Positions 25,796-34,000 of a stretch of DNA of 64,000 nt are shown here, piece after piece. How positions within the stretch are numbered: the stretch's first letter is position 1; each line of letters begins with the position of its first letter. The notes below the pieces were generated by a model. The model was not told the origin of the DNA. It ran no database searches and saw only the letters and a program-made list of their open reading frames with translations. The stretch is from Vezdaea acicularis. Taxonomy: Eukaryota. Location: contig JAPEUI010000006.1 in assembly GCA_026025075.1 (NCBI GenBank), positions 1 through 64,000 of the forward strand, written 5' to 3'. The translations under genes were made by a program, and so were the position numbers.

Positions 25796-28500
25796 ATGGC
25801 GCCAGGTAGAATAACACGAGCTATGGCTAAGGGAGCCGCCTCTTGCCAACCCTCCGGCTCCCCCCCACCACCTCCAAACCCTGCTGCCCTTGCCCCAGCT
25901 TCAGCAGGAATCGTGAAGAAGAAAGGTCGCACGGCCGCTACCGCCAAAAAGGGTGGGAAGAAAGCCTTGAGGCCTCGTGGCCCAGATGGGCGTTTCTTGA
26001 AGAAGCAAGAGATTGTCTCCCCGCCTCCCGCCAGACCCTCAACCCCACCTGTCCAAGGGGCAGAGCCCTTCGCTGCCGCTCTCTCACCAGTTGCCTCTCC
26101 ACCACCAGCCATCAAAGACGAGCCGTTGTCTCCACTGGGTGTCCCACCACCCATCATCATTGACGATGAGCTGCCTTCTTCCGCGACTGTCGTCCTCGGG
26201 ACACAGCCGGCTCCGTCGGCAACTGTCATCAAGACAGAGCGCGTCTCGTCGCCATCGCTCGAAGATGGTGGCGTGAAGCGCAAGCGCGACGGAGGAGAAA
26301 GAGAAGGTGAAGAGGAAGGAGAAGGGGACGAGCAAGCTTCGAAGAGAAGCAGACCGTCTCCAGAGGAGACCGGGATCGTGGTAAGTACAACCAACATCCT
26401 TCTACAACAGCTTAAACTGACTGACTCAAAGGTCCAGAAGCGCAAGCGAACCGCTCGTGTCCTGGAGGAAGAGGTGGAGGAGAAAGATGATCGAGCTCCG
26501 AAGCGGAGTAAGCCGTCTCCAAAGGAGACTAAGAAGTCTGAGGCCCCGTTGCCCAGAGTAAGTACAGCACTTTCCCAATAGCGACTTAAGCTAATAGGAT
26601 ATAGCGACGAAACCCTCCCCGCAAGGTAAAGCGGGAGTATGGCGGAGTCGAGGCAAGGCCTCCTCCAACCGATATCTCCGACATCCCTCTACCATCCACG
26701 GAGATGGTAGAGACATCGGTTCCTCTCGAGACCGCAGAGGTCGGAGGACATTCTCCAGAGGTCGAGAGGGCTCAGAGTCCCTCACCTCCCTCTTTGCCGC
26801 GGAGGAGCCCAACACGCCGGGCATCGGACAGCTCGTTCGCGACGAGCAGAGACACGACCACCATAGACCTATGGAGGATCCCGTCGTTCTCTCCGCGACC
26901 GGTCTGGGAGGAGGAGGAAGAGGCGCCGGTGCCACACGACTCCGAGGTCGTGCCGCTGGTCCCGGAGCCTCTCTCCTTCGATGACGGAGAAGCGCCTGTT
27001 CCACAGGCCTTCGAGTACGTCTCGTCATCCCCGGAGCCGCTGCCGACGGAACTCGGCTTCAAATTCGAGTCGCCGGGCCCAGATTCGCCGCCGACGATCT
27101 CGACACCGAGCACCGCTGCTCGACGGTCGTCGGGAACGCCACCTTCTCGCTCTCTCTCGCCGAGAGCGAGAACGAATATGCCAGGCAGGGCTTCTGCCAG
27201 TCCGTCCCTGGGACGAAGAAGACGTGATGGGTCTTCTTCGTCGTCCAGGGCGCGACCACATACGCCCAGCGACACCCAAGAGGTGCAGAGGCAAGAAAAA
27301 GAGGAAGAAGACGGCGAGCTCGATGGAGAGCATCCGGCAAAGCGGATGCACACAGAGCAAGGGGATGTCGGCCCCTTCTCTGTCTCGGCCTGCGTAACGC
27401 CGCAGAGCGACTTCGACGGTGGGCAACCGCCATCGGCCTCCCCGTCGACCCGAGCCTCGTTGAGCAGGCCGGAGATCAACATGTTGCTCCGCCAGCTCCT
27501 GGCATCGGGAAGGATATCGACGGCGTCGATGAGGAGAGACGAGGTTGGTGATTTCGACATCACCACCTTGTCGTTCGCCGAACAAAGGCGAGAGATCTTC
27601 GCCGCTGGCAACGTGCCAGCAACCCCGACGCCTCGCCCCGCCCTGACGCCCCTCCCCGCTCCGCCGACCCGCCCTACCCCGCCAACCCGACCTTCGTCGA
27701 GCAGGTCGGAGACCAGCAGGCTGCTCCGCCAGCTCGTGGCATCGGGGAGGATGAATGACAGGGATGATGAGCTCGAGCTCACCACCTTGTCGTTCGCCGA
27801 GCAAAGGCGGGAAATCTTCGCCGCTGCCGATGTGCCGATGGACGATTCGGCACGAAGCCAGGCGTCCCCCACCGCTCAGCTGGCTACTACGGACGTAGCT
27901 CAGCAAATAGAGCAGGATGAGCTGATGGCAATGTCGCTCATGTATGGGGACGAGGCGGAGGCAAAGCAAGAGACGGACGAAGAGATGGCGAGACGGCTTT
28001 GCGAGGAATGGAACGGGACCGGAGCTTCGAAAGCGAAGAAGGTCTCGGCCCCAACGCCCGACGCCCGGAGGCGTCCATTGGCATCGAGTTTGCTTCGCGG
28101 ACTCGAAGGAACTCCCGACGACTTGGTGGATCCAGGTCTGCGTAGAAGGAGGGACAGGAAACGCCTGTCCCCGCTACCGATCGAAAGGAGACGCCCCACC
28201 CCGCGATCGGCCCGCCCCTTGAGGTTCGGCGACGACCTTGACGACCCGCCGGAAATCCCGTCTGAGGAGGCGGAGAGAGAGGAGCAGTGGAGGAGGAGGG
28301 AGGCTGCTTACCGGAGAGAATGGCAAGACAATGAGTCCTCTGCCATTCCGAGCGTTCCCTCACCGACCTCTCCGACCTTTCGCCAACCCGATTGCATCGA
28401 TAGCGACGATGAGGACGGCGACGACAAAAAGGGCAAGAAAAAGGAGGACAAGCGCCCTGTCGAGAAGGGGGAAGATGCCAAGGAAGAGGACGAGGAGTGA
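25796..28500 (+). CDS. Orphan, largely disordered, probably nuclear protein (~868 aa); exons 25796-26380, 26432-26557, 26605-28500
   Basis: Two GTAAGT introns with branch sites join ORF 25796..26581 to ORF 26704..28500 in frame. Several KRKR/KKK NLS-like clusters. An internal duplicated block differs only at synonymous positions. Confidence 0.72.
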
Positions 28501-28716
28501 GCCTCCTTGCCTCCGAGAAAGCTGGCCCCCCTATCGACTCCGAATCCGAACGCCCCCTTGTCGACGGACTTGGATCCTTTCCCTTGCTTGCTGGAAGGTG
28601 AAGAAGAGGAAGGTATTCGGGCGTGGCTTGTTTCTCGGCGTGAGAAACGCCAATGCGAACCCCTTCGGCCGATCAGAACATCTCCTTCGCCGCCAGGCGG
28701 TTCCTCGGGTGCGACA

Positions 28717-28930
28717 GAGTGTGATCTCTATAACTCACTCCGCTATCATTCGACGACCTCCCTTACGAAAGAGCGTGATCTCTGTAACTCACTCCGCAGT
28801 CATTCGACATCCTCCCTAAAGAAAGAGCATGGTCTCTATGAATGCGACGTCTCCCATCACGAGCGTCGCCAGAGCGCGAATCTCTATAACTCACTCCGCT
28901 GTCATCGATTTCCTTCCTTTACGAAAGACT
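28717..28930. repeat. 54-bp tandem repeat (two full, one partial, one displaced copy)
   Basis: GAG(T/C)GTGATCTCT(A/G)TAACTCACTCCGC...TCATTCGAC...AAA at 28717 and 28771, partial at 28825, and again at ~28872. Confidence 0.85.
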
Positions 28931-29419
28931 GGGGTCCTCGACGAACTGATCACGATGTCTCCTCTTCTCTGCTAGCTGAGTATGATCTCCTTTGAATTCA
29001 TAGCGACGCCTTGTCTAGATTCCTGCTAGATCTGAAAACGTCTTCTCCTAAAGAGAATCTTCGCAGCAAGATCATCGCCTTGTTTTAAGTTCCGATTTTC
29101 CTTTAAGGTCATTTGAGAGCTTCTCTTCATTTGAAGGAAGATCGCATCATACTTTTCGGCCACAGCTCCGCCCTTTGTTCCTAGGATCGGCCCGTCCGCG
29201 TATACCCCAGAGGAACCCATCAAAGGCCTCAAGGTTGGAAAGGCAAGCGACTAGGAACGATACTTTCGTTTCTGGCTCCAGAATGCAAATGACTCTCGAT
29301 TGTAACCATCTGGAGGAGGCAGCTCGTCTTCCCGAGCCTTCTGGGTCAAGCAAACTCTTGACCTTGCCTTCACGTACTATCTTCCACCGAGATGTGATAG
29401 ATAAGTGTCTGTCAAAGCA

Positions 29420-29690
29420 GACTTCGTTATGTCCGCGCGGACTCCTATGATTCCCGCCAGAATACTCCTCCTGGCGACAGACTACTCTTTCCATCAGCCT
29501 CTGCTCCCTCGTAGCGCCGAACGTCAATCAATCAGCGGTACCCCTATTCGACGAATCAAAGAAAGCGCGAGTGTGTCCGACCTAATCAGCGCCGGTGTAT
29601 TCGGCACAGTTGAGAAAGTGCGTCGACTGACTTATATGTCCGCACGGACTCCTGTGTTTTCCCGCAAGAATACTCTTACCGGCGACAGGC
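29420..29690. repeat. Pair of ~60-bp direct repeats (29420-29480 and 29629-29688)
   Basis: TATGTCCGC(G/A)CGGACTCCT(A/G)TG...TTCCCGC(C/A)AGAATACTC...GGCGACAG occurs twice, ~207 bp apart. Confidence 0.8.
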
Positions 29691-29836
29691 GACAACTCGC
29701 AGGAGGCTCATCACCCTTACGACAACGACTTGGAATGAAACTTTCGGCGGCGATTTCGCCTTGGTAGAGTAAGTCGGGTGATTCTCCGAGTCATCGGAAT
29801 CTTTTTTTGAACTTTAAGTTATGGGCCACTATTGGA

Positions 29837-30605
29837 AAGTGGAAGAAGGTGAAGCGTTTTCGCACCTGTCTTCTCGCCTTTGCTCCTCTGGGAGCAACAG
29901 CGAGAGAACTAGCCTACGGGCTCGGGTTTTTTTCTAAGTGGAAGAAGGGGGAGGATTTCCTTTGTTTTCCGCACTCACCTCTGCTTCCTCGAGAGTAAGT
30001 GGGTGCGGCAGCGGCCCTAGTGGCCTGGGTTTTGCATCAAGCGGAAGAAGGGGGAGGATCTCATACAGCTCTTTCGCCTTTGCTCCTCTGGGAGCAAGAG
30101 CGAGAGGACTAGCCTACGGGCTCGGGTTTTTTTTCTAAGTGGAAGAAGGGGGAGGATTTCTTTTGTTTTCCGCACCCGCCTCTGCTCCTACGGGAGCAAG
30201 TGGATCCGGCTTAGGTTTTGCATTAAGTGGAAGAAGGCGGAGGATTTCCTTTGTTTTCCGCACCCGCCTCTGCTTCCATGGGCGCAAGTGAGTGCGGCAG
30301 CGGCCCTCGTGGCCTGGATTTTGCATTACGTGGAAGACGGGGGAGGATTACACACCGTTCTCTCGCCTTTGCTCCTCTGGGAGCAAGAGCGAGAGGACTA
30401 GCCTACGGGCTCGGGTTTTTTTCTAAGTGGAAGAAGGGGGAGGATTTCCTTTTGTTTTCCGCACCCGCCTCTGCTTCCAACGGGAGTAAGTGGGTGCGGC
30501 AGCGGCCCTTGTGGCCTGGGTTTTGCATTAAGTGGAAGAAGGTGGAGGACTGCTTTTTGCGCGTTTCATCATTCTCGGCTTCTACTCAGGAAGTATGAGA
30601 GGACT
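29837..30605 (+). repeat. Higher-order tandem array of eight ~100-bp units (A-B-A-B'-B-A-B-degenerate) with conserved hairpins
   Basis: Units start with AAGTGGAAGAAGG or a close variant at 29837, 29936, 30039, 30137, 30225, 30328, 30425 and 30530. Lengths are 99, 103, 98, 88, 103, 97 and 105 bp. Confidence 0.95.
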
Positions 30606-31045
30606 TGTCTTGCCCTTTGGTGGCTGCTTAGATAGAACGGGCGGGAGGAAGTGGAGGAGTTTCGTTTCGGTGGCGGCTCACGCTGTCTAGATGGGCACAA
30701 GGCATACTACGCGGTGGCACAGAAGCAGAAAGAGAAGTATGGGGGGCAAAAGTTTCATTTTCATTAGACTAGCTTAGGAGAGTCGTTATAGGCTAGTAGC
30801 AGTAGCAGCTGCAGTGATATAGTACAGAGAGACTTGAGAATGCCTTCTTATCATGCTTAACAAGAACGCGCTATTCGTATTGCACCGAAACGAAAAATCG
30901 ATCAAGAAAATGCTCGCATGCCTATATTGCTCGTCGTGATGTCGAAAAAGCTTTCATAACAGTCACCTGAAATGCCCGAAGAATATCGCTGCTGTTGCTA
31001 CCTGGCTCATTCATGTACTCCGTCCTTCATGCTGCCTTTGGGACT

Positions 31046-34000
31046 TTAGCATACCACGAGGTAGTTGCTCGGCACCAGGCCTCTCCCTCCTATTCCGCCG
31101 CCTGCTGCAGATCGGACTACCTCAGCTTCCCACCACCCGTCGTCCTGGAGCCGGAGCACCGCCACGATGTCGCCTTTGCCGAAGGAGAGTTCTTCGGGGA
31201 TGGCCGCTGTGTAAAGGTAGAGCGCTCGAGCTAGGCACAGTTCAGTTAGTCCTGAGAATGGAAAGGTGGAAAAGAAAGGTCATAGCTTACCATAATGTAT
31301 AATCTGCCGCCCATCCCTTGTCATCTGTTGTCGCCCATCACTACTGCCCATCGCCGCTGTCGACTTGCTCCGCTGCCTCCCTCCTTGCTGCTGACCATGC
31401 TGGCTCCCATAGCTGCCACCACCGCCGTCGTAATAGCTAGTTGGCCGCCCAGCCCCATGCCGGCCTCGTCCTCCACTTCCTCTGTACATCGATTCGCCGT
31501 CTTGCTGCTGCTGCTGTGGCGGCATGGCTAAGGTCATCTCGCTACCCACAGCACCACGCTGCGCATACATCGGGCTAGGAGATGCAGAGCGTGCTATGCT
31601 ATGGTTGTCTTGTCTGTCAGCAGGCGAGTGCTGGCGGCTGCCATACCCTCCTTGCTGATAGCGGCCTTGGGCACTTGAAGGTTGTTGGCGCCCGCTACCG
31701 TAACCTGGACGGGGGCTTGCGCTTCGCGGTGGAGCAGGGCTCGTGGCCCTAAGAGGCGCGCCATTGATGCTGCTATTACCGCGTGTGCTCGGTCGAGAAC
31801 TACCCTGGGTTGAACGAGGTGCTTGGGGCGAGCCGAATACGGCTGCAGTTTGGTCGATGTATTTCTGGCGCGTCTGCTGCATCTGAGCAGACGTGAAGGC
31901 CGGCTGAGGGAGGTCGAGTCGCTTCATTGGGGTGTCATAAGATGGAGGTGGTGTACCCCGCTGAGCGGAGGAGACAGGGTTGGCGAACTGTTGTGACTGC
32001 AATTTGGCGTCGGGAGCAGGAGTTGATAGGCCGTGGTATCGATCTGCTGACTGCCGAATAGAGGAGGCTTTGGTGACACCCTTAAGTTCGGCGAGGGCTG
32101 CAGCTATTGGATCATCGGTATCGGGGGTGGGAGCAGTATTGGAGCGATTATTCTGTCGTTTGTCCGGAGAGGCGACGTCGAAAACATTATTACCCACGTT
32201 CAGCTGGAAGTTGGCGCGTGGATCGGCCGGCTCAGGACTGCCACTCATGTGGCGGGGGTCACCGAGGACCATAGCTTGGGCGTCCTGGCCGTAAGCAGGT
32301 GGGCGGCGAGTCGGGCTTGTATTGCTGGACCCCCCTGTGAGACGTGCTGACCAAGTATTGCGGCTGCTCGGAGTCGTGACATTTGACGAGGCTTCATCGT
32401 TGCGGTTCAGATCGCGTTTACTTTTGCGACGGAACGGGCTGTGGCCTTGGAAGAAGCCACTTTTCTTCTTGTGTGCTAGTTGCTCGTCATTCGAACTGCC
32501 TTTTACCGGTGACTGCTTCCCGCTTGTGGGTTCAATGCTTGAGAACGAAGTCGGGTTCGAATAATCACTCTGGGAATCACGACTAGACGGCCTTGCTGGG
32601 CTAGGTGCAGAGCTTCTCTCAGATGGTGGACCGGTTCGACAATACATCGTCATGCCATCTTGAGGGTACTCGTTGTGAGGAACAGCTGCAAGTTTTCCAT
32701 GTTGCTCTCCTTGGTAGTCTAGCCGCTGTTGCTGCTGCTGCTGTCTTTGCTGTTCTTGATGTTGTTGGGCTGCGTGCAGGGGTGTGAGTGTAGTCTCTCT
32801 GCTAGGGGGTGTTTGTATATTCCCATGTCCCATCTGTGCGGCCAGTGCTGAGTTTGGATCATGATGGGACTCATACGTTGAGGGTTGTGGAGAAGAAGTT
32901 CGGTAAGCTGGGTTGATACTACGTGGAAATTGAGCAACAGAATACTGATCGTCCTCGGACTGCTCAGATTGCGAGTCGTTCACATCACCTCGGCAAAAGT
33001 TGATGTATTTAGGGGGATCTGGTATCTCTTGGCCAGTTCCCTTCTCCCGAATGAACGTGTTGATGTCTTTCTCGACTTCGCAACCCTCAAGGGATAAACG
33101 GATCTTTTCACAGGACTAGAGGGTTCGTTAGCAGGCATTCCTGTTTGGTAAGGCAGAATGACCTACGGCATCATCCGTAACGCAGACAGTGGACGAAATA
33201 TTTGCAAAGCTCCAAAGGCTGCTCTTCATAAAGTCCAGTCTTTCTTCCTCAAGGTCCTGAAATTTCTGCATATAGTTGTTAGCATGCCCCTCTACAAGAA
33301 AGCCATTGACATACATCGCAAGCGGCCTTCCAATCGCGGTTCCAACGTCCTGTAGTCTCCTCAAGCACTTTGATTGCTGCTTCATATTCCGCATTCGAGT
33401 TGGCAACTGATATTTGCGTCTTTTCAAGCTTCGCCTTGTTCTTGCGCTCCTCTTGTCCCATGACCATATGTCCCTGAGCTAGATAGCCTTTGATCCGTAG
33501 ACAATCTTGCTCATATCGATCCCTTGCCTAGAAGGAATGAGTTAATGGACACTTCCTTATGGATATGATATCGTGGTGGCAAACCTTGTTGGCGACGAGT
33601 GTCTGTTGACACTTGATCTTGAAGAGCTTTTCGATTCCTGTTTGTACAATCTTTCGTCGCTCCTTCATCCCTCCAGCAAAAGCCGCCAGCGGCTCTTCAA
33701 GCTCGCTCTTCATCTGCGCAGCAATACTCTGATGAGACTTTGCCATGGTATCAACCTCCCCACGCATCGTATCCAAGGACGACCGCAGGGTTCCCGCTTC
33801 ACATGACCCTAAAGGTTTCCGACACAACGCCAGTAACTTGCGAGCGTATTCGTCTTCAATAGCGGCACGAGCTGTCAAACAAGATTAGCGCTGACATGAA
33901 GATCCCTAAGACGTAGAGGGGTGCGCATACTATTATAGAATATCTTCAATTCGTCGCTAGTAACTTTTGCATTGTGCATGCGCTCCAAAAGCGGATGGAC

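Follow-up and report, generated by a model that had tools for sequence, protein, structure and literature searches.

VNTR minisatellites are the described systems to which the tandem array analysed here comes closest. They share with it head-to-tail, non-coding units that can form hairpins, as is the case in Colletotrichum lentis, whose rDNA spacer holds such minisatellites (PMC4560493), and they resemble it further in higher-order duplication, in decayed edges and possibly in array paths that differ between related samples. There are, however, clear differences. The units from C. lentis are 23 and 39 nt long versus 88–105 nt here, the array of C. lentis lies in the rDNA spacer and ours between two protein-coding genes, and ours is composed of two alternating unit types whose stems differ in sequence and yet both pair. 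For the hairpin minisatellites of C. lentis the authors speculated on small-RNA synthesis without showing it (PMC4560493).

Three other systems have to be considered. Through template switching during replication perfect stems can arise, and the resulting substitutions can look compensatory (Monttinen and Loytynoja, 2022, PMC8794818); near-perfect reverse-complement arms, multi-base, apparently compensatory differences and a shift in register, here between the 3′ arms of A and B, are common to such hairpins and to our two unit types. That paper concerns RNA genes rather than tandem repeats, and for the present array we infer the mechanism. Fungal milRNA and other hairpin small-RNA loci (PMC3547838, PMC9757828) are alike in being intergenic hairpins in a filamentous fungus, and the T runs of our array could end Pol III transcripts; most abundant milRNAs of Neurospora are Pol III-dependent and intergenic (PMC3547838). 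Compared with such loci, our array is tandem, has stems of only about 17 pairs, is no more conserved than the background of the surrounding spacer and is known from its sequence alone. In a re-analysis, basic standards were satisfied by fewer than half of the hairpin small-RNA loci that had been described from fungi (PMC9757828). Bacterial intrinsic terminators and REP/BIME elements, finally, also combine a G+C-rich hairpin with a T run after it, repeated between converging genes, but our host is a fungus, and the short stems here have only 4 pairs and are separated from the T run by a 4-nt spacer.

The window, by which we mean the whole 64-kb stretch of DNA that was analysed, is fungal nuclear DNA: open reading frames away from the array match Fungal_trans, DUF1765, PGM1_C_vert_fung, RSN1 and UCH. 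Two convergent genes are separated at their 3′ ends by a repeat-rich spacer of about 2.5 kb, in which the array is located (Table 1). From the stop codon of the left open reading frame it is 1.3 kb to the start of the array, and the array ends about 0.4 kb from the stop codon of the imp2-like gene on the right.

Table 1. Positions of the array, its units and the neighbouring features in the window.
Feature	Position	Strand	Details
598-aa open reading frame, left neighbour	26704–28500	+	Low-complexity or disordered
54-nt tandem unit, 2.4 copies	28712–28839		Same spacer as array
Direct repeat of a ~90-nt stretch, two copies	29428–29509 and 29635–29717		Same spacer as array; copies 207–208 nt apart
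Hairpin followed by T7	29777–29808	+	29 nt upstream of U1; terminator-like look
Whole array	29837–30640	+	U1_A, U2_B, U3_A, U4_B′, U5_B, U6_A, U7_B, U8 (decayed A-type)
Leader starts	29837, 29936, 30039, 30137, 30225, 30328, 30425, 30530	+	Spacings 99, 103, 98, 88, 103, 97, 105 nt
U1, type A, edge unit	29837–29935	+	Long hairpin 29868–29909, short hairpin 29911–29922, T7 29927–29933
U2, type B	29936–30038	+	Long hairpin 29969–30008, short hairpin 30013–30025, T4 30030–30033
U3, type A	30039–30136	+	Long hairpin 30068–30109, short hairpin 30111–30122, T8 30127–30134
U4, type B′	30137–30224	+	Long hairpin 30170–30209, TACG loop, 2 outer-stem mismatches
U5, type B	30225–30327	+	Long hairpin 30258–30297 (weakest, z −1.5), short hairpin 30302–30314, T4 30319–30322
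U6, type A	30328–30424	+	Long hairpin 30357–30398, short hairpin 30400–30411, T7 30416–30422
U7, type B	30425–30529	+	Long hairpin 30459–30499, short hairpin 30504–30516, T4 30521–30524
U8, decayed A-type, edge unit	30530–30640	+	Leader intact; hairpins and T run lost
Higher-order duplication B-A-B′/B-A-B	29936–30529	+	B-A-B′ 29936–30224; B-A-B 30225–30529
imp2/cdc15-like septation protein gene, right neighbour	31046–32983	−	Assigned by homologue search

The array consists of eight head-to-tail units of 88–111 nt in the order A B A B′ B A B plus a decayed A, and all eight have a purine-rich leader in common. Of the leader 20-mer AAGTGGAAGAAGGGGGAGGA, 13 positions are invariant across the eight units; with up to 3 mismatches it is found in 7 of the 8 leaders, compared with 0.01 expected from shuffled sequences, the leader of U1 being more diverged (5 mismatches). 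A 40–42-nt inverted repeat is present in seven of the units, its 19-nt arms forming a stem of about 17 pairs with an internal loop, and a 4-bp hairpin followed by a T run in six. In U6, for example, all 10+7 pairs of the long hairpin are formed, one of them as G-U. In U4 (B′) the short hairpin is deleted, about 17 nt being missing. TRF reports a higher-order period of 289 nt (2.0 copies, 89% matches), and the two blocks of the higher-order duplication differ by 26 substitutions (17 transitions and 9 transversions) and an indel of about 17 nt. Inner units of the same type are 88–94% identical, whereas the identity to other units is only 68–89% for U1 and 67–79% for U8, which is nevertheless detected both by nhmmer (E = 1e-5) and by a covariance model (23.8 bits). 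When the whole window was searched with nhmmer --max and with the covariance model, filters off, the eight units were found and no further copy.

The feature is real, and the initial annotation of it was largely accurate. The stems and the short hairpins AGCC[TACG]GGCT (type A) and GGCC[5 nt]GGCC (type B) can be read in the sequence as described there, as can the T7, T8 and T7 runs after the A units, the T4 runs after the B units and the C(TACG)G loop in the long hairpin of B′ at 30183–30198. That the array is non-coding also holds, only two of the seven full unit lengths and not the 289-nt period being multiples of 3. Eight units had been counted; eight leaders are indeed there, but the eighth unit is decayed and folds no better than its shuffles (z +0.9).

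The array behaves for the most part as would an ordinary tandem repeat that changes fast, and with a probability that we put at roughly 55% it is a hairpin minisatellite confined to this locus, with unequal exchange, gene conversion and template switching as the processes that have shaped it. It would be a non-coding minisatellite in a spacer prone to repeats, its units, each with a 40–42-nt inverted repeat, belonging to two related types (A and B) with lengths near 100 nt, and it would grow and reshuffle by mis-aligned recombination or replication slippage. Traces of such growth are seen in the duplicated 289-nt B-A-B block, in the slippage-type deletion of the short hairpin in B′ and in the edge units U1 and U8, which are the most decayed. 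Gene conversion would homogenise the copies patchily, as their mosaic conservation suggests. The hairpins would be inverted repeats at the DNA level, probably made and sometimes re-perfected by replication template switching and not by selection on an RNA, and the terminator-like look, a hairpin plus a T run, would simply have been copied along with the unit. Minisatellites generally have non-coding units of about 10 to over 100 bp and evolve in concert, and several of these traits are found here: non-coding units that follow each other head to tail 88–105 nt apart, a homogenised centre with decayed edges, and a segmental duplication. We favour this reading because the two strands fold alike, the variants in the stems are unbiased, the units are decaying and conservation is opposite in A and B; because the same spacer holds two other repeat families; because pieces that include array units diverge like the neighbouring spacer in the X5 relative; and because there is no Rfam, tRNA or convincing C/D snoRNA match and no further copy in the window.

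The competing explanation that deserves most attention is that the plus strand gives rise to small structured RNAs, corresponding either to one unit or to a B-A dimer (about 200 nt), with their 3′ ends at T7–8 and possibly made by RNA polymerase III, or that it is a lineage-specific cluster of milRNA-like hairpin precursors. On present reading of the sequence we hold this to be unlikely. One point that speaks for it is the stability of the long hairpins. Compared with 300 dinucleotide shuffles on each strand, those of the A units have z-scores of −4.4, −3.5 and −5.5 on the plus strand and of −5.2, −3.2 and −4.8 on the minus strand, and those of the B units of −3.9, −2.9, −1.5 and −4.8 (plus) and of −2.7, −2.8, −2.1 and −2.9 (minus). 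On the plus strand the long hairpins beat the shuffled controls (z −1.5 to −5.5), a comparison on which the initial annotation had made its proposal of a structured RNA depend. For whole units on the plus strand the values are less pronounced, z −1.5 to −2.9 for A and only +0.3 to −1.4 for B. The whole array has a z of −4.6 on the plus strand versus −2.5 on the minus strand, with 30 shuffles only; this somewhat lower value on the plus strand also favours an RNA and counts against a mere minisatellite. The stems themselves, however, show no strand asymmetry, and folding that is about equally good on both strands points away from a selected plus-strand RNA. A hairpin of leader plus pyrimidine tract, which RNAfold draws in B units, was set aside as a composition effect, its z-scores of −0.65 and −1.07 being at shuffle level.

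If an RNA from the plus strand were protected, G-U pairs should prevail over A-C mismatches among the variants in the stems. The outer stems contain 57 Watson-Crick pairs, 8 G-U, 4 A-C and 1 other combination in 70 cells, and the inner stems 40, 5, 1 and 1, respectively, in 47 cells. Counted as distinct variant sites there are 7 G-U versus 5 A-C and 2 others, to which a 1:1 ratio fits (one-sided binomial about 0.39). There is thus no strand bias in the stem variants and no sign of a plus-strand RNA being protected. The earlier statement that most arm variants among the B copies are G-U compatible does not hold up, the B units having 4 G-U sites versus 5 incompatible ones (3 A-C and 2 others). 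The stems are moreover decaying, with non-pairing outer-stem cells in U1, U3, U4 and U5, i.e., in four of the seven full units, or in five if the inner stems are counted; this, like the loss of the short hairpin from B′, is against a structured RNA.

Conservation along the units is mosaic and opposite by type, which likewise points away from a structured RNA: the A units keep the hairpin and vary the linker, and the B units do the reverse. Of the 90 nt compared between U3 and U6, only the first 36 contain substitutions, 9 in all (P = 1.3e-4), and a 62-nt A body is identical, whereas in the three pairs of B units the long hairpin holds 8 of 12, 5 of 8 and 5 of 9 differences, with leader and linker nearly constant. 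Gene conversion, i.e., patchy homogenisation, explains both types, and selection on the hairpin explains only A. The identical A body of U3 and U6 by itself can nevertheless be counted on the side of an RNA, since purifying selection would explain it as well as gene conversion does.

Also in favour of an RNA is the structure that A and B have in common although both partners of some pairs have changed. When the outer stems are compared in structural register, 5 of 10 pairs have both partners altered between A and B, and both types pair, as the initial annotation had noticed; neither on this point nor in the comparison with shuffles do the grounds apply on which it would have given up a structured RNA. 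If the alignment is fitted to a model based on the B units, 94% of 134 cells pair, compared with 36–50% when the partners are slid by 1–3 columns, and both partners change in 5 of 21 pairs, a number reached in 17 of 500 shuffles. The covariation score is 0.252 versus 0.160 ± 0.021 in shuffles, none of 500 reaching it, and 0.04–0.11 with slid partners. For a hand-made structural alignment of six units, from which U4 is omitted as it has no short hairpin, the SCI is 1.06 on the plus strand versus 0.94 on the minus strand. Both alignments are, however, fitted to the structure, and the three A units are placed inconsistently by the B-based model, each having 3–5 non-standard pairs. From a MAFFT alignment of seven units RNAalifold recovered only the inner stem, because the outer arms of A and B do not align by sequence.

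What the copies offer under the heading of structure conserved over sequence is in effect one contrast, A versus B, and not many independent events. When A and B are aligned by sequence only, their 3′ arms are offset from each other by 2 nt. This register shift argues against stepwise compensation pair by pair and fits template switching in one step, in which one arm is re-copied from the other. The fact remains, as a counterpoint to a minisatellite without function, that pairing is kept or re-made in both types by something. A further counterpoint, which also favours an RNA, is the recurrence of UNCG-type C(UACG)G tetraloops and of T7–8 runs after the A units, although the B units end in T4 only.

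Searches for known families have been of no help to the idea of an RNA. With Rfam there was no match at gathering score over the 64 kb, self-cleaving ribozymes such as hammerhead and twister, snoRNAs and snRNAs included, so the earlier remark that the array is not recognisable as a known family holds for RNA; with E up to 10, the region 29300–31100 gave 11 matches of 13–23 bits, all far below gathering (36–80). ARAGORN found no tRNA or tRNA-like gene in the window, and no Pol III promoter boxes, which in tRNA-type genes are internal A and B boxes, were apparent by eye. A scan of both strands of 28400–31400 for C/D snoRNAs (C box RUGAUGA, D box CUGA 40–140 nt apart, terminal stem) yielded two candidates, both outside the array and neither convincing; a snoRNA cluster was dropped, GUGAUGAG near 29714 on the minus strand being without a good D box or terminal stem. 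A fungal milRNA precursor is an expressed hairpin to one arm of which small RNAs of about 19–25 nt map; arms of 19 nt with an internal loop, as here, are short for a Dicer substrate. In its boldest version the proposal would be that of a lineage-specific small RNA family with an internally looped hairpin of 17 pairs, a mini-hairpin capped by UNCG and a 3′ end consisting of a U run, transcribed from the plus strand, perhaps by Pol III as B-A dimers, with A and B as co-evolving variants whose stems are kept by selection. This we consider quite doubtful, and more so than the general proposal.

Comparison with relatives at the same locus also bears on the matter. DNA read sets covering the locus come from moss metagenomes (X1–X4) and from one organism (X5), and contigs from four of these sets were compared. 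Both in samples 95–99% identical to the window and in a relative about 90% identical (X5) the array occupies this locus, with contigs running from unique flank into units on both sides of the array. It is therefore not very young, being found in a relative that is about 10% diverged. The contig path of X5 reads A, a B that is 18 nt shorter, an A with a linker close to that of U3, B and a decayed end, which is three units fewer than in the window; in X1 and X2 the contigs pass straight from U1 into U7 (29927 to 30416). These shorter paths may reflect a true difference in copy number or a collapse of repeats in short-read assembly. The region 30016–30318 is without contig cover, which is uninformative in short-read contigs. 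Where X5 can be compared with the window, pieces with array units, flanks included, differ by 9.4% (40/425 and 35/371), pieces of the spacer by 8.7% and 9.6%, and a gene-bearing piece by only 4.9% (25/512). That the array diverges no less than its spacer is evidence against a structured RNA. At position 30487, in the stem of U7, the window has a T, whereas all four DNA runs, the relative with about 90% identity included, have a C; this is a derived CpA-to-TpA transition in the window, by which a G-C pair has become G-U.

Less probable again is a cis-acting function, in DNA or in nascent RNA, for the convergent genes. The array could be a zone of termination or insulation limiting collisions by read-through, or an array of binding sites with the purine leader, CT-rich on the minus strand, as motif; the sequence makes us regard either as improbable. 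The position between convergent 3′ ends, at the distances from the two stop codons given above, would suit such a function, as would a leader that all eight units share with its invariant positions, and T runs on the plus strand (A runs on the minus strand) every 100–200 nt. Against it stand the leaders of the A units, which vary by 1–5 positions, and the rest of the 64 kb, in which there are other gene pairs with nothing comparable between them. Termination by eukaryotic Pol II is not known to use signals of a hairpin plus T run, which also counts against it. As a bacterial intrinsic terminator the array was rejected in view of its fungal host and of a scan (stem of at least 5 pairs, T run 0–2 nt from the stem, bacterial host) that flagged only U2 among the seven full units and, in two overlapping calls, the upstream hairpin at 29777–29798. 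The total for the scanned region was 23 versus 17.2 ± 4.0 in shuffles, which is within expectation.

A Helitron has at its 3′ end a hairpin about 10–12 nt before a terminal CTRR, begins with TC at its 5′ end and occurs in multiple dispersed copies. The A units do have their short hairpin, 11 nt and then CTAA, but that the array is the remnant or an internal tandem region of a mobile element, such as reiterated Helitron-like 3′ ends or a foldback or MITE-type element, is very improbable, since the B units are without CTRR, no terminal inverted repeats flank the array (the hairpins of the units and a single 10-nt palindrome were all that turned up), there is no second copy in the 64 kb and no related match in the metagenome, prokaryote and viral collections scanned, and the X5 relative carries the array at the same locus. 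The earlier suggestion of a rolling-circle or other mobile element thus finds no support, and a Helitron 3′ terminus was rejected, CTAA following the hairpin in A only and the array having no other copy within the 64 kb. The leader as the polypurine tract of a retroelement was likewise dropped, there being no LTR-like context.

In the collections just mentioned, the leader 20-mer had 99 single-match loci among metagenome contigs, with which 28501–31280 aligned in blastn over no more than 36 nt; these are chance purine tracts. A 25-mer from the A hairpin had no match in prokaryote genomes. Among viral contigs the leader 20-mer matched 16 loci, 14 of which share one conserved stretch, perhaps from a terminase, and the other 2 of which are identical to each other. 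The viral matches are apparently phage coding sequence, a coincidence of sequence unrelated to the array. A narrow literature search returned no description of an array of this kind.

If the array is an ordinary minisatellite, it is a caution that paralogues in a tandem repeat can show a conserved structure with changed sequence, and can do better than shuffled controls, even where no RNA has a function, since copying, conversion and renewal of inverted repeats all take place in the DNA. The array could then serve as a length-variable strain marker for the moss-associated host fungus. Should the RNA reading prove true, a new family of fungal small RNAs in tandem arrangement would have been found.

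Some observations on the surroundings of the array may be added. The hairpin upstream of U1, with the arms GGTGATTC..GAGTCATC or, further inside, TCCGA/TCGGA, resembles the tails of the units in that a T run follows it. It was not picked up as a unit by nhmmer or by the covariance model, and it may be what is left of the tail of an older unit, or else the seed of the array. The copies of the direct repeat of about 90 nt contain short palindromes, e.g., GTCCGCGCGGAC, and around 29430–29656 the X5 relative differs in structure, a loose end with a joint that "goes back 155".

The left open reading frame has no Pfam family and, when 8000 candidates sharing most words with it out of about 5.8 billion protein clusters were scored, a single match, to one protein with 98% identity. 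It is rich in proline, serine and arginine, has an acidic-lysine tail and contains an internal duplication, a motif ending in TTLSFAEQRREIFAA being present in two copies. For the 517-aa open reading frame of the imp2/cdc15-like gene, 790 homologues were found, several of them named and many with FCH and SH3 domains. The gene has a long middle exon (31280–32983) and an SH3-like last exon (31046–31279); the long open reading frame stops at 31280 and the last exon is in another frame, which implies a short intron. The FCH/F-BAR part is expected at the N-terminus, above 32983.
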